A DNA stretch of 48,569 nucleotides from Candidatus Troglogloeales bacterium (GCA_005239745.1 SBBL01000055.1:1-48569), one strand, 5' to 3'; shown: positions 8,894 to 20,203, counted from the first letter of the stretch. Notes: a model not told the origin generated them from the sequence alone. Numbers and translations are program-made.

Positions 8894-10861
8894 ATGATCG
8901 AGAGCGTTATGAGGTTAAAAACCACTCGGTTATTAGCGATGTTTGCCCTTCTCAGTCTGGGGTCTATGTACCTGAATCCGAGAGGGGTTCCCATACCCGC
9001 TACCTCACTTCGTTTTCAGGACGTTTCTCTTACCTCCGGTTCTCTCAATACCCATTCCATGGTAAAGCTTTCGCAAAAGTTTAATGGCATCATGCCGTGG
9101 CTTTCATCCGTAGGCGCTTCAGTGGCTGCTGGAGATTTCAACAATGACGGTCTGACTGACTTTTATGTCACGAACTCCGGACGGAATTCGCAGAATCGTC
9201 TCTTTCGTAATTTGGGAGAGGGCAAGTTTGAAGAGGTGGCTTCCCAGGCGAAAGTCGCCGATTGCAATCGTGAAGGGGCCTCGATGGATGCCATTTTCTT
9301 TGACTACGATAACGACGGGGACCAAGACCTCTACGTTGTCAAGTGGGGAGGCTCAAATATCCTGTTTGAGAACCAAGCGGACGGAACGTTTCGGGACGTT
9401 ACCCAACGGGCGGGAGCCGGCTATCGGGGATACGCCAATGGAGTGATTGCATTTGATTATAACCGGGACGGCCTGCTTGATATATTTATTACAAACTATT
9501 TTTCAGAGGACATCGAGGACCCCTCCACGGGTCAGCGCGTGCGCAATGACCTCTGGAACCCTGTTACCACACGCATCATGCACACGACGTTTACACATGC
9601 CATTAACGGTGGGAAAAATGTCCTTTATAAAAACGGTGGAGACGGGACGTTCAAAGAGGTGACCGACCAGACCGGGCTGGGTCACACGGGGTGGTCGCTT
9701 GATGTTGGCGCGGGGGATTTAAACAACGATGGATGGCCCGACCTTTACATTGCAAACGATTTCGGCGCCGATGAACTTTACTTTAACACGGGGGCATCAG
9801 AGACTTCGCCTCGGTTTCGCCTTGTGATTGACAAAGACGGCCATCCCGGTATCGGTCATGACTGGTGGAAGGGGATGAACGTTGATATCGGGGATATTGA
9901 TAGAAATGGTCGGTTGGATATCTATGTAACGAACATCTTGGCGCGACGGTATAAAACGGATGAAGGGAACATGCTGTGGCTGAATTATTCCGATCCCGCG
10001 AAGATAGGCGGCAGCCGATTTTTCAATCGGAGCCGTGAAGTCGGCACCCATGACGGTGGATGGGGATGGGGCGGAAAGTTTGCCGATTTCAATAACGACG
10101 GATGGCTTGATATTTTTGCCGTGAACGGGTTCGTCAGCGGGCCTGATCCAAACGATACCTACTGGTACCAACTCCAGGAGATGGTGACACAAACAAAAAA
10201 TAATGCCGCTGATGTTAAGGATTGGCCTGATATGGGAGATCGAGACTTATCCGGTTACGAACCGAGTCGCCTGTTTATCCAAATACCGCCTTCCTCTACC
10301 CTACAACAAGAGAATATATCTCCGGATTCCCAGACAAGAATGTCTGGGTCACCTTACGTGTTGCCTAGATTTGTTGAAATGGCCGAGGTTTCAGGCATTA
10401 CGGACCTTTATAATGGCCGTGGCATTGCACTTGCCGATTACGACGACGATGGCGATATGGATTTCTACATCGCCAATCAAGGTGCGGCAAGTAACTTATA
10501 CCAAAACAATTTATTGGCCGGTGCACAAACGGTACGGAAAGAAATGCACTGGGTCGGTCTGAAACTGGTTGGCAGCCCGGATAAACCGCGACGGGTGGGC
10601 AACCGTCGGTTTGCAAGCAACAAGGACGCGGTAGGCGTTAGAGTCGAGTTGTGGGTCAACGGTACATGCCGGATACATGAGCTGAATTATTTTAACGGTT
10701 TTGCCTCTCAGAGCGATAAAAGGGTGCACTTTGGTTTGGGTAAGGCGCAGGCTGTTGACCGGCTCGTGATCACCTGGCCCAGTGGACGGAGAGAAACCAT
10801 AGGAGGGATGGAGGTGCCGATCAACCGGTACCATACCATTATTGAAGGAAAGAGCCGATGA
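8894..10861 (+). CDS. FG-GAP/VCBS beta-propeller protein with C-terminal ASPIC/UnbV domain (CRTAC1 family; enediyne cassette UnbV/E4-like)
   Basis: Signal-like N-terminus. Seven DxNxDGxxD-type blades are present (GDFNNDGLTDFYVTN, FDYDNDGDQDLYVV, FDYNRDGLLDIFITN, GDLNNDGWPDLYIAN, GDIDRNGRLDIYVTN, ADFNNDGWLDIFAVN, ADYDDDGDMDFYIAN). The C-terminus reads GVRVELWVNG...NGFASQSDKRVHFGLG...VITWPSGR. Confidence 0.85.
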   Translation: MIESVMRLKTTRLLAMFALLSLGSMYLNPRGVPIPATSLRFQDVSLTSGSLNTHSMVKLSQKFNGIMPWLSSVGASVAAGDFNNDGLTDFYVTNSGRNSQNRLFRNLGEGKFEEVASQAKVADCNREGASMDAIFFDYDNDGDQDLYVVKWGGSNILFENQADGTFRDVTQRAGAGYRGYANGVIAFDYNRDGLLDIFITNYFSEDIEDPSTGQRVRNDLWNPVTTRIMHTTFTHAINGGKNVLYKNGGDGTFKEVTDQTGLGHTGWSLDVGAGDLNNDGWPDLYIANDFGADELYFNTGASETSPRFRLVIDKDGHPGIGHDWWKGMNVDIGDIDRNGRLDIYVTNILARRYKTDEGNMLWLNYSDPAKIGGSRFFNRSREVGTHDGGWGWGGKFADFNNDGWLDIFAVNGFVSGPDPNDTYWYQLQEMVTQTKNNAADVKDWPDMGDRDLSGYEPSRLFIQIPPSSTLQQENISPDSQTRMSGSPYVLPRFVEMAEVSGITDLYNGRGIALADYDDDGDMDFYIANQGAASNLYQNNLLAGAQTVRKEMHWVGLKLVGSPDKPRRVGNRRFASNKDAVGVRVELWVNGTCRIHELNYFNGFASQSDKRVHFGLGKAQAVDRLVITWPSGRRETIGGMEVPINRYHTIIEGKSR

Positions 10862-11865
10862 AGTTTCGCTTAAAAATCATTGCAGGTATGGTCCTTTTGG
10901 GTTTGTTGGTTGTGGTGGCCTATCTGCGTTCGGGCTTACTGGATTTACCTGCCGTACGGAAGGGGGTTACTGCAATGGACGCCGGTCTCCTGGGTCTTAA
11001 TGAGATGAAGGCTATGGACGAAGTCGTTGCAACCGGTCGGGCAAGTGATGGCCGTAACGGTGCGATTGCCATTGCCGCGTTAGGCGTGGCCCATATCCGT
11101 CTTGGAGAAAGCGAGCGGGGGATCCGACAACTGCAGAAAGCCGTGCAAACCGATCCCACCAATTTAGTCCTGGGGAATACTCTAAGAATGGAGGTATTGC
11201 AACTAAAGCGCCGGTGGCTCAGAGAAAGGGCGGACAACGGTGAAATTGCACTTGATTTTCCAGATTATCTTAATGACGAGCCGATCCGTTTTTTTAGGGA
11301 ACTTGTGAGGACACACCCGACGCGTGAGGCAAAACTCCAACTTGCGCTTGGCCTTGTTGACCACATGCTACTGTTTCCGGCGCTTGAAATTAAGGCGCCT
11401 GCCAGTGTTGAGGCAGTCGAAATCCTTACGGACATTTTGCGGGATCGCAAAATCAACAATGCCTACTATATTCCGGCATTGTATGCGCGTGGACTGAACT
11501 ATCTGTACCGACCGTTTAATCTTGTCTGGCCCGAGAAAATAGCGGCCCCTCCCGACGCGGCGAGCAAGGACCTTGCCGCCGTGGTGGCCATCGCCCAAAA
11601 AGTTGGCGTGGGCTCCAATACGCTCAAGGCTGAAGTTGCCTTAACTCTAGGAGATGCTTACGCGAAGGAGGGCAAATCGAGCCTTGCGCGATCATGGTGG
11701 CAAATCGCAAACAACATGGTACAAGACAAGCGGTTGCGTGAACGCGTGTTTCTTCGTTTGAAGTGGCCAGACGATGATATGCGTACTAATCTCGAACAAG
11801 TCTTCGAACGTCAAATGGAGGATCTGGATCACCCCTTAAGCGATTTGAGGTTTATGTGGCTATGA
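10858..11865 (+). CDS. Membrane-anchored helical (TPR-like) hypothetical protein
   Basis: The ATGA start/stop overlap with the upstream gene indicates translational coupling. There is one N-terminal TM segment, and the rest is helical repeat-like. I recognise no catalytic motif. Confidence 0.6.
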   Translation: MKFRLKIIAGMVLLGLLVVVAYLRSGLLDLPAVRKGVTAMDAGLLGLNEMKAMDEVVATGRASDGRNGAIAIAALGVAHIRLGESERGIRQLQKAVQTDPTNLVLGNTLRMEVLQLKRRWLRERADNGEIALDFPDYLNDEPIRFFRELVRTHPTREAKLQLALGLVDHMLLFPALEIKAPASVEAVEILTDILRDRKINNAYYIPALYARGLNYLYRPFNLVWPEKIAAPPDAASKDLAAVVAIAQKVGVGSNTLKAEVALTLGDAYAKEGKSSLARSWWQIANNMVQDKRLRERVFLRLKWPDDDMRTNLEQVFERQMEDLDHPLSDLRFMWL

Positions 11866-19769: not shown

Positions 19770-19771
19770 TA

Positions 19772-20203
19772 ATGGCGATGCGCGCGTATGAATACCGGCA
19801 CGTGGTGGGGTTTGAAGAGACGAACCTTATCGGCAACGTGTACTACATTAACCACCTGCGTTGGCAGGGCCGCTGCCGGGAGCTCTTCCTTAGAGAGCAC
19901 GCCCCCCAGATGCTGGTCGAGCTTGAACGGGACTTATGCCTTGTTACAACGCGATGTTCATGTGAGTACCTTGATGAGCTTTTGGTCTTTAACGAGATTA
20001 TCATTCGAATGCGGTTGGGTGAACTAACGCAGAACCGTATGTTGTTGTTCTTTGAATATTGGCGGTGTAACGGCGATAAAGAACAACTGGTTGCCCGGGG
20101 TGAGCAGCAAGTGGCCTGTATGCGGCGGGATAGCGGGCAGATGGTTCCGGCCCCCATACCGGCAGTACTGCGTGAGGCGTTACGCCGATACGCTGAGATT
20201 TAA
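19772..20203 (+). CDS. Hot-dog fold (4HBT/YbgC-type) thioesterase, enediyne TEBC/E10-like
   Basis: MAMRAYEYRHVVGFEETNLIGNVYYINHLRWQG... is typical of the 4HBT family. Length is 143 aa and it sits immediately after the PKS. The SD GAGGTG lies 5 nt upstream, inside the MITE TIR. The ORF-track N-terminal extension runs through the MITE and is not used. Confidence 0.8.
   Translation: MAMRAYEYRHVVGFEETNLIGNVYYINHLRWQGRCRELFLREHAPQMLVELERDLCLVTTRCSCEYLDELLVFNEIIIRMRLGELTQNRMLLFFEYWRCNGDKEQLVARGEQQVACMRRDSGQMVPAPIPAVLREALRRYAEI

Follow-up and report, generated by a model that had tools for sequence, protein, structure and literature searches.

A 48,569-nucleotide contig of a Candidatus Troglogloeales bacterium (GCA_005239745.1, SBBL01000055.1:1-48569; hereafter the window) contains a compact locus built around a polyketide synthase (PKS; iterative, type I) of the enediyne type (PKSE). 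The locus extends from 7374 to 20816 (~13.4 kb) and comprises eight genes, all on the plus strand, in the order secreted DUF7450 protein, E4', X335, E5', E3', PKSE, thioesterase E10, and M-like protein (Table 1). A first-pass annotation had described six open reading frames (ORFs) at 8894–20203 as an enediyne-type cassette, and overlooked the genes at the two ends, which encode the DUF7450 and M-like proteins. When the translated plus-strand ORFs are compared with the coordinates and motifs it quoted, all six are present where they were placed, with E5' beginning at ATG 11862 (293 aa) or possibly at GTG 11856. The start/stop overlaps that it described can also be read in the sequence (ATGA at 10858 and 11862, TAATG at 13673), and correspond to 4 bp at the joins of E4', X335, and E5' and to 1 bp between E3' and the PKSE gene.

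Table 1. Features of the PKSE locus and domains of the PKSE, with coordinates in the window.
Feature	Coordinates	Strand	Basis
Secreted/anchored DUF7450 protein, 459 aa	7374..8753	+	Pfam DUF7450, E=9e-36
E4', UnbV/SgcE4-like propeller, 655 aa	8894..10861	+	Pfam FG-GAP_3 and UnbV_ASPIC
X335, membrane-anchored TPR-like protein (predicted), 335 aa	10858..11865	+	Weak Pfam TPR, AF2 model
E5', UnbU/SgcE5-like polytopic membrane protein, 293 aa	11862..12743	+	SgcE5 comparison
E3', UnbL/SgcE3-like DUF1702 protein, 305 aa	12756..13673	+	Pfam DUF1702
PKSE, iterative type I PKS, 1988 aa	13673..19639	+	Pfam domains, SgcE alignment
PKSE KS domain	13697-15082	+	
PKSE AT domain	~15470-16372	+	
PKSE ACP with Ser1002	~16586-16789	+	
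PKSE KR domain	17447-17986	+	
PKSE DH domain	18239-19024	+	
PKSE Sfp-like PPTase domain (predicted)	~19040-19636	+	
MITE-like repeat element, 142 bp	19628..19769	.	17-bp terminal inverted repeats GGGCACCTCTAAAAACC
E10, hot-dog fold thioesterase, 143 aa	19772..20203	+	Pfam 4HBT_2, PDB matches
M-like protein, 199 aa	20217..20816	+	tblastn to 21 other loci

The 1988-residue PKSE contains Pfam ketosynthase (KS, residues 9–422), acyltransferase (AT, 640–859), ketoreductase (KR, 1259–1438), and dehydratase (DH, 1523–1784) domains, and a weak PP-binding match (972–1039) that includes Ser1002 as the serine of the acyl carrier protein (ACP). The motifs DGACSSS, GHSLGE, DLHLNSIT, TGGGKGIT, HIFRGQRLFP, GKPEV, and WAASECLKKAG, quoted at first pass, are all read in its translation. 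Reference proteins were taken from the authentic C-1027 cluster (sgc) on plasmid SGLP1 of Streptomyces globisporus C-1027; SgcE aligns with the window PKSE from residue 9 to the C-terminus (residues 9–1988) at 48% identity, with per-domain identities of 64% for KS, 44% for AT, 49% for ACP, 53% for KR, 42% for DH, and 41.5% for the phosphopantetheinyl transferase (PPTase) region. The AT region matches the DynE8 structure 4amn in a PDB search (E=5e-53). Catalytic and motif residues are invariant across a 10-sequence alignment, and the C-terminus falls at the same alignment position as in homologues.

Pfam identifies nothing in the C-terminal ~200 aa of the protein. A 22-sequence profile of this region searched against the whole PDB has Sfp structures 1qr0 and 4mrt as its sole matches (E=0.004), with the GKP, SH, G-D-E, and W..E..K motifs of Sfp and the profile in register. 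In the PKSE these motifs appear in the order RPDGKPE, SAAH, GCDVEP, and WAASECLKKAG, and residues G57, P59, C93, D94, W137, E141, and K145 (domain-alignment numbering) are invariant in 22 PPTase regions. The profile match and the aligned motifs point to the C-terminal Sfp-like PPTase that had been proposed, and together with the Pfam domains and the end-to-end SgcE alignment they bear out the full domain order of KS-AT-ACP-KR-DH-PPTase. Judged by its sequence, this 1988-aa PKS genuinely belongs to the enediyne type. The first-pass annotation had itself raised the alternative that this is a polyunsaturated fatty acid (PUFA) synthase or heterocyst-glycolipid-type PKS, and some affinity is seen: NCBIfam, which has no dedicated PKSE model, matches the protein to PfaA below threshold (472 bits, cut-off 1010), and the KS domains of PKSEs and PUFA synthases are sister groups (PMC4247773). 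However, the KS is 64% identical to that of SgcE (611 bits), there is a single ACP, no enoylreductase or chain-length factor, and a C-terminal PPTase, and homologues of E3, E4, and E5 lie adjacent; the KS, the SgcE alignment, and the neighbouring CalE7-type thioesterase rule this identity out for practical purposes.

That thioesterase, E10, matches CalE7 (2w3x, E=5e-49), SgcE10 (4i4j, E=2e-45), and DynE7 (E=3e-36) in a phmmer search of PDB and is 54% identical to SgcE10, in agreement with the earlier assignment of a TEBC-type thioesterase beside the PKS. In relatives the PKSE and E10 genes abut or overlap, whereas in the window E10 starts 132 bp downstream of the PKSE stop codon. The gap is filled by a 142-bp repeat whose left arm encodes the final PKSE codons and stop codon and which stops 2 bp ahead of the thioesterase ATG, E10 retaining a start codon of its own. 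The repeat belongs to an intergenic family of ~110–185 bp with perfect 17-bp terminal inverted repeats (GGGCACCTCTAAAAACC), and looks like a miniature inverted-repeat transposable element (MITE) or a repetitive extragenic palindromic (REP)-like element. Copies are located at ~4049–4080 (partial), 6636–6744, 6964–7072, 19628–19769, 41890–42076, and 44773–44913; nine arm matches are observed in the window compared with 0.01 expected by chance, and the element folds as RNA at -79.6 kcal/mol (z=-9.3). Because the same repeat is found upstream of, inside, and downstream of the locus, it counts against a chimeric contig and argues that the locus is resident in this genome.

The position of this element could also be read as a sign that the cassette is a remnant in decay, its activity lost when the repeat inserted between PKSE and E10. 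The element stands where E and E10 usually overlap and brings the PKSE stop codon with it, and other parts of the window contain a fragment of a Mutator transposase and an lptF gene in two pieces, which hint at erosion of the genome or of its assembly. All eight ORFs are nonetheless intact, the catalytic residues are invariant, the PKSE ends in alignment with its homologues, and the thioesterase ATG follows directly after the element. The intact ORFs and invariant residues make a remnant very improbable, and this reading is rejected.

The three genes conserved with PKSE in enediyne producers are also present, as the first-pass annotation had claimed under the names UnbL, UnbV, and UnbU (E3, E4, and E5), and direct comparison with the sgc proteins reveals what it had missed, namely that they form a divergent set. 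E4' and SgcE4 share 26% identity across ~580 aa (E=2e-43, 140 bits), and Pfam places five FG-GAP_3 stretches and a C-terminal UnbV_ASPIC domain in E4'; a hydrophobic leader is visible in its sequence, although below the transmembrane threshold of the scan, as is also the case for SgcE4 and the E4 of locus L003. E5' is 30% identical to SgcE5 (E=6e-21, 77 bits) and has at least four transmembrane-like segments; SgcE5 matches Pfam NQR2_RnfD_RnfE (PF03116) at 26.9 bits over the whole profile, and the window E5' has no Pfam match. E3' is a DUF1702 protein (E=5e-12, 45.7 bits, cut-off 25) with 27% identity to SgcE3 (E=3e-11, 49 bits). Much closer relatives of all three occur at several of the loci used for comparison (numbered L; L006 is the sgc cluster, L004 Scytonema hofmannii PCC 7110, and L007–L086 a genome scan): L002, L031, L038, L087, and L088 encode an E4' 54–75% identical to that of the window, the same loci and L089 an E5' that is 50–79% identical, and close relatives of E3' are seen only in L002, L087, and L088 and in L092, which has the same divergent E3'.

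Between E4' and E5' lies X335, which has weak TPR matches in Pfam. Its AlphaFold2 (AF2) model (pLDDT, predicted local distance difference test, 91) has an N-terminal helix at residues 2–27 followed by an all-alpha solenoid, and Foldseek relates the model to generic TPR proteins only (2pl2 at E=2.6e-4, MamA, NlpI, PilF); the model and its matches are consistent with the extra anchored TPR-like protein that had been suggested at this position. The X335 family is small, with only 210 clusters among 5.8e9 proteins, and its named homologues are from Ignavibacteria, Ignavibacteriae, and Bacteroidota metagenome-assembled genomes (MAGs). X335 is located between E4' and E5' in L002, L031, L038, L087, L088, and L092, and is the hallmark of a discrete cassette subtype, referred to here as X-type. 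The order E4'-X335-E5'-E3'-PKSE-E10 is repeated in L002 (69–80% identity), L088, and L092; L087 has the same order plus two inserted genes, its sequence ending inside the PKSE, and L090 (an Ignavibacteriae MAG) has a partial version of the module. This shared order and the start/stop overlaps speak for a coherent operon. Two Planctomycetaceae loci, L031 and L038, combine the E4'-X335-E5' module with a canonical E3. Across the X-type cassettes (L002, L087, L088, L090, L092, L031, and L038) the module is 44–79% identical to that of the window, and their hosts are uncultured Ignavibacteria/Bacteroidota-like and Planctomycetaceae MAGs.

The module and the PKSE seem, from sequence comparison, to have partly separate histories. 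The module is 56–72% identical between the window and L087, compared with just 44% for the first ~1100 residues of the PKSE, and the Planctomycetaceae X-type PKSEs are placed elsewhere in the PKSE tree than that of the window. An X335-E5' pair is also present in L089 (10001–11984), where a 10-kb neighbourhood contains neither PKSE nor E4' or E3', and may be the partner of a distant PKSE or have an independent role. Genes for lipid handling or export accompany X-type modules. L087 contains an SCP2 lipid-binding protein (11937–12458) and an FG-GAP protein sorted by the type IX secretion system (T9SS; 13559–17665) inside the cassette, a MacB/FtsX-OEP efflux set adjoins that of L088 (2670–6880), and an ArsP_1 permease gene follows E10 in L002 (16323–17426) and L092 (11661–12764), where the window has the M-like gene. 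In L002, the closest relative, the cassette is in a different neighbourhood, beside ribosomal protein genes.

Pfam assigns no family to the M-like protein encoded after E10; its relatives make up 5083 clusters, all annotated as hypothetical. The protein matches 21 other loci in tblastn searches (166–235 bits, 51–63% identity), and loci with a homologue include the sgc cluster and, outside the actinomycetes, eight cassettes, of which Scytonema L004 is one and the genome scan supplied the other seven. The sgc homologue, at L006 12517–13080 (tblastn match at 12526–13065), is beside sgcE1 and is 54% identical; the gene neighbouring it is not a solved SgcJ. The genes that 9-membered enediyne clusters conserve include one called M (PMC9682884), and the window and sgc genes are, by position, probably this gene M, although the name SgcM could not be verified. 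The protein has four long helices with the motifs HWAEH, E..H, WHHxEH, and PRVELH, and residues H43, E46, H47, E79, H82, H118, E121, H122, E153, and H155 are invariant in the family. The arrangement of HxxEH, ExxH, HxxEH, and ExH motifs on four helices suggests a possible membrane di-metal site reminiscent of di-metal oxidases. Its AF2 model is helical (pLDDT 89); Foldseek finds no fold match for it in PDB (best E=0.8), and a profile of the family gives chance-level matches only against PDB sequences. The M-like protein is better conserved with authentic enediyne clusters (about 54–63%) than is the PKSE itself (48%).

At the left end of the locus, the 459-aa protein has a transmembrane-like N-terminal segment (residues 13–31) and two DUF7450 repeats around a central domain of ~170 aa (residues ~175–351, window 7896–8426), here called the PAD domain, to which Pfam assigns no family. 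The PAD family has 1795 clusters among 1.84e9 representatives. Of the loci from the genome scan described below, 12 of the 45 from non-actinomycetes encode a PAD domain no more than a few kb from the PKSE, and none of the 35 from actinomycetes does; eight of the twelve are from Acidobacteriota, so the count overstates their independence, and the remaining four are from Microseira, Isosphaeraceae, Multivoradales, and Terriglobia, to which the window adds another lineage. Giant proteins reaching ~3100 aa (P0369–P0517) also contain the domain, repeated two to six times in tandem, which makes an extracellular repeat or binding module more likely than an enzyme, and this is probably its nature. The 459-aa protein is a probable accessory member of the locus. 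DUF6073, encoded near the Scytonema and L003 cassettes, was considered as a relative of the PAD domain and rejected as unrelated. A hairpin with a 21-bp stem (8770–8812) is situated directly 3' of the DUF7450 gene, and a perfect 26-bp palindrome with a 4-nt loop (4092–4147) lies between comEC and a nuclease gene; both are probably terminators, though a simple terminator scan missed them. Promoter and terminator scans of the window give sites no more frequent than in shuffled sequence.

The minimal enediyne PKS cassette is defined by E3, E4, E5, E, and E10 (Liu 2003; Shen 2015; PMC4480864), and all five are found in the window, E3 unusually weakly. Clusters for 9-membered enediynes additionally conserve E2, E7, E8, E9, E11, J, and M (PMC9682884), and of the genes tested by tblastn only the M-like gene is found in the window: SgcE1, E6, E7, E8, E9, and E11 match nothing in it, and SgcE2 matches only the E3' gene (38 bits). 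Pfam annotation of the larger window ORFs likewise gives no sugar, resistance, apoprotein, or benzoxazolinate-type genes, and outside 7374–20816 it reveals housekeeping functions only, except for a Mutator-family transposase fragment. The claim that enediyne tailoring, self-resistance, and sugar genes are missing from the window is thus borne out. Compared with the C-1027 cluster, the locus has the same five families, the same PKSE domain order, and an M-like gene in common, but differs in gene order, in the anchored TPR protein added between E4 and E5, in the absence of E1, E2, E6–E9, and E11, and in its diderm host. Its resemblance to the PKSE/thioesterase pairs of 10-membered enediynes (CalE8/CalE7 and DynE8/DynE7) is through the thioesterase, which is closest to CalE7 and also matches DynE7, and through the DynE8-like AT region; the window PKSE itself sits outside the actinomycete clade.

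Cassettes of this kind are well represented outside the actinomycetes. A protein search with the PKSE gives more than 7000 homologues at E≤1e-50, of which the best 120 are full length, 55–69% identical, and from metagenomes, Acidobacteriota, Planctomycetota, Poribacteria, and cyanobacteria; JGI annotates these homologues as 'enediyne polyketide synthase'. The genome scan, at one genome per species, yielded at least 583 relatives, of which 80 were kept (45 non-actinomycete, 35 actinomycete); the species representatives returned did not include the genome of the window itself. The non-actinomycete genomes include Pyrinomonadaceae, Terriglobia, Isosphaeraceae, Pirellulaceae, Pedosphaera, Kapaibacteriota, Zixibacteria, Methylococcales, Parabeggiatoa, Ktedonobacteraceae, and cyanobacteria. 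In 2014, seven of 61 enediyne cassettes were from outside the Actinomycetales (PMC4480864) and cyanobacterial enediyne-type clusters were described (PMC4247773), and in 2023 enediyne KSs that differ from every MIBiG reference were tied to non-actinomycetes of six phyla, with no compound known (PMC10308959). The first-pass annotation had regarded a diderm, non-actinomycete host as unusual, which does not stand, as such cassettes are published and dominate the closest database matches.

Accessory genes separate the two groups of loci. In tblastn searches of the window proteins and SgcE1–E11 against all loci, counted within 10 kb of the PKSE, the flavin reductase E6 has a homologue at all 35 actinomycete loci and at none of the 45 others, E7-type P450 genes are found at 27/35 and 1/45, E8 and E9 at 22/35 and 0/45, and E11 at 11/35 and 0/45. 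E6 is a cleaner lineage marker than E7–E11, and its distribution hints that it belongs to the core chemistry of actinomycetes. As a bare cassette is the norm outside the actinomycetes, with all 45 such loci lacking E6, E8, E9, and E11, the missing tailoring genes do not single out the window, contrary to what had been supposed. The canonical non-actinomycete cassettes (for example those of Scytonema hofmannii PCC 7110, Pyrinomonadaceae, Poribacteria, and Planctomycetota) have the order E3-E4-E5-E-E10, frequently accompanied by an AraC regulator, DUF6073, and M, and have PKSEs 55–62% identical to that of the window. The M-like gene and the secreted PAD-domain protein recur beside them; unlike the window, they have no X335, and the Sgc proteins are closely related to their E3, E4, and E5. 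These cassettes have been called 'enediyne-like', with products unknown (PMC10308959, PMC4247773, PMC4480864). In Scytonema a two-domain SRPBCC/AHSA1 protein (L004 101–1132), of the fold class of the CalC-type self-sacrifice resistance proteins known from calicheamicin producers, is encoded near the cassette; no counterpart is seen in the window.

A neighbour-joining tree was built from 93 PKSEs of full length (1901 columns, 50 bootstraps), SgcE being the only compound-linked member; in it SgcE and the other actinomycete PKSEs, 36 in all, fall into a single clade (100% support). That of the window is outside this clade and groups with those of L002 and P0003 (100% support) within an unresolved non-actinomycete radiation, in agreement with the 2023 survey (PMC10308959). 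These results bear on whether the locus makes a classical 9- or 10-membered enediyne, with tailoring, resistance, and additional core genes (E6–E9, E11, and others) elsewhere in the genome. The five defining cassette genes and an M-like gene, M being among those conserved in 9-membered clusters (PMC9682884), are what such a pathway would contain, and the 48.6-kb contig is only part of a MAG. However, actinomycetes carry E6, E8, E9, and E11 beside the PKSE, and none of the 45 non-actinomycete loci does; the PKSE falls outside the only clade with a compound-linked member, no resistance-type gene is seen in the window, and no enediyne has been reported from these non-actinomycete phyla (PMC10308959). 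A classical enediyne is therefore considered unlikely.

The rest of the window is occupied by housekeeping genes. Some encode ComEC, a nuclease, a flavin adenine dinucleotide (FAD)-binding flavoprotein of the fumarate reductase/succinate dehydrogenase type, an AIR-synthase-family protein, a formyltransferase, and an Omp85-family protein, and others encode LptF/G, a complex I subunit, SecG, a tpi-pgk-gap group, PBP1A, an SLT transglycosylase, and fumarase. LptF/G and the Omp85-family protein indicate a diderm host, as had been stated at first pass, with PBP1A and SLT also present. The contig also appears in Logan run SRR6943129. A complete class III polyhydroxyalkanoate (PHA) operon (27485–32174; thiolase, acetoacetyl-CoA reductase, a weak phasin-like ORF, PhaE, and PhaC) is 7 kb downstream of the locus and has a G+C content of 55–57%, raised as in the PKSE. 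Directly upstream of the locus, on the minus strand, three tRNA genes (tRNA-Ser(CGA), tRNA-Lys(CTT), and tRNA-Arg(CCG); 6443–6806) are interleaved with two of the repeat copies. This tRNA cluster could be an insertion site for an island; no att-like direct repeat joining it to the far end of the locus was found. An Rfam scan of the window gives tRNAs only. An LptF/LptG-family gene on the minus strand is split into two overlapping ORFs (33271–34008 and 33966–34562; profile positions 2–110 and 136–351), which is a frameshift, pseudogene, or assembly error; its paralogue at 32171–33253 is intact. The Mutator-family transposase fragment (47739–48539, minus strand; profile positions 215–337 of 379) is located at the contig end.

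A working model for the locus can be assembled by homology for its first steps. Actinomycete PKSE/thioesterase pairs release 1,3,5,7,9,11,13-pentadecaheptaene. Here, the Sfp-like domain would load the ACP of its own PKSE at Ser1002, the KS, AT, KR, and DH domains would build a conjugated polyene iteratively from malonyl units, and the CalE7-type E10 would free the chain. The released hydrophobic hydrocarbon would then move into the inner membrane. E5' and the M-like protein are polytopic, X335 and the DUF7450 protein have N-terminal hydrophobic segments, and E4' has a leader, so further processing would probably be at or beyond this membrane, where E5', M-like, E4', and E3' may process the chain oxidatively. 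X335 would act as an anchored scaffold holding the leader-bearing propeller E4', and the M-like protein, with its four His/Glu motifs, and the RnfD-like E5' are the candidate redox components. The outcome would be a polyyne- or enediyne-like product without decoration, either kept in the cell envelope or released across it.

We estimate a probability of about 0.8 that 7374–20816 functions as a 'minimal' enediyne-type PKS locus in a lineage outside the actinomycetes, with a previously undescribed X-type sub-architecture. Several observations weigh against it. The window PKSE lies outside the part of the tree that holds the sole compound-linked PKSE, and E6, present at every actinomycete locus, is absent from the window. 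E3', E4', and E5' score 49, 140, and 77 bits against the Sgc proteins, compared with ~210, ~530, and ~280 elsewhere outside the actinomycetes, and as they are only 26–30% identical to them a different chemistry may be involved. Even the actinomycete versions of E3, E4, E5, and M have no known function, and processing at the membrane is for this reason our inference. Finally, the repeat element splits PKSE from E10 and may weaken their co-translation, and the hairpin after the DUF7450 gene may set that gene apart as a separate unit.

The sequence is compatible with a product that is an enediyne, a linear polyyne, or a polyene that the accessory proteins simply handle. A possible but rather doubtful alternative, by analogy with aryl polyenes, is that a linear polyene, perhaps lightly modified, is itself the end product and serves as an envelope pigment, antioxidant, or lipid, with E3', E4', E5', and X335 handling, localising, or exporting it rather than building alkynes. 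The bare locus among housekeeping genes, the membrane-bound or leader-bearing nature of most accessory proteins, their wide divergence from the versions in enediyne producers, and the SCP2, T9SS-sorted, MacB/OEP efflux, and permease genes next to X-type modules would all fit such a role. On the other hand, homologues of E3, E4, E5, and M have no known context besides PKSE loci and are retained across phyla, and the heptaene is chemically unstable. A more speculative and improbable proposal is that the X-type cassette is no antibiotic pathway but a compact machine located in the envelope, which turns the PKSE/thioesterase heptaene into a hydrocarbon lipid that is polyyne- or enediyne-like and carries no decoration. 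Its parts would be X335-held E4', E5', E3', the M-like protein, whose fold is unsolved, and the secreted PAD-domain protein, with M-like and RnfD-like E5' performing an oxidative desaturation that gives triple bonds, a chemistry not yet assigned to any enzyme in enediyne biosynthesis, and it would operate in Ignavibacteria/Bacteroidota-like and planctomycete bacteria.

PKSEs outside the actinomycetes are already known, and what is distinctive about this minimal PKSE locus is its X-type sub-architecture, its divergent E3', E4', and E5', and the two overlooked genes. The comparison of 80 genomes provides markers for such loci: E6, found with every sampled actinomycete cassette and with none of the others, the PAD-domain protein, found only with the others, and X335, which defines a discrete subtype. 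The roles of E3, E4, and E5 in enediyne biosynthesis are still described as unknown, as are the products of non-actinomycete PKSE cassettes. Expression of this compact eight-gene locus, which has no tailoring genes, would reveal the product of a bare cassette, which could be an enediyne or polyyne, the first from outside the actinomycetes, or else an envelope lipid of a new kind.

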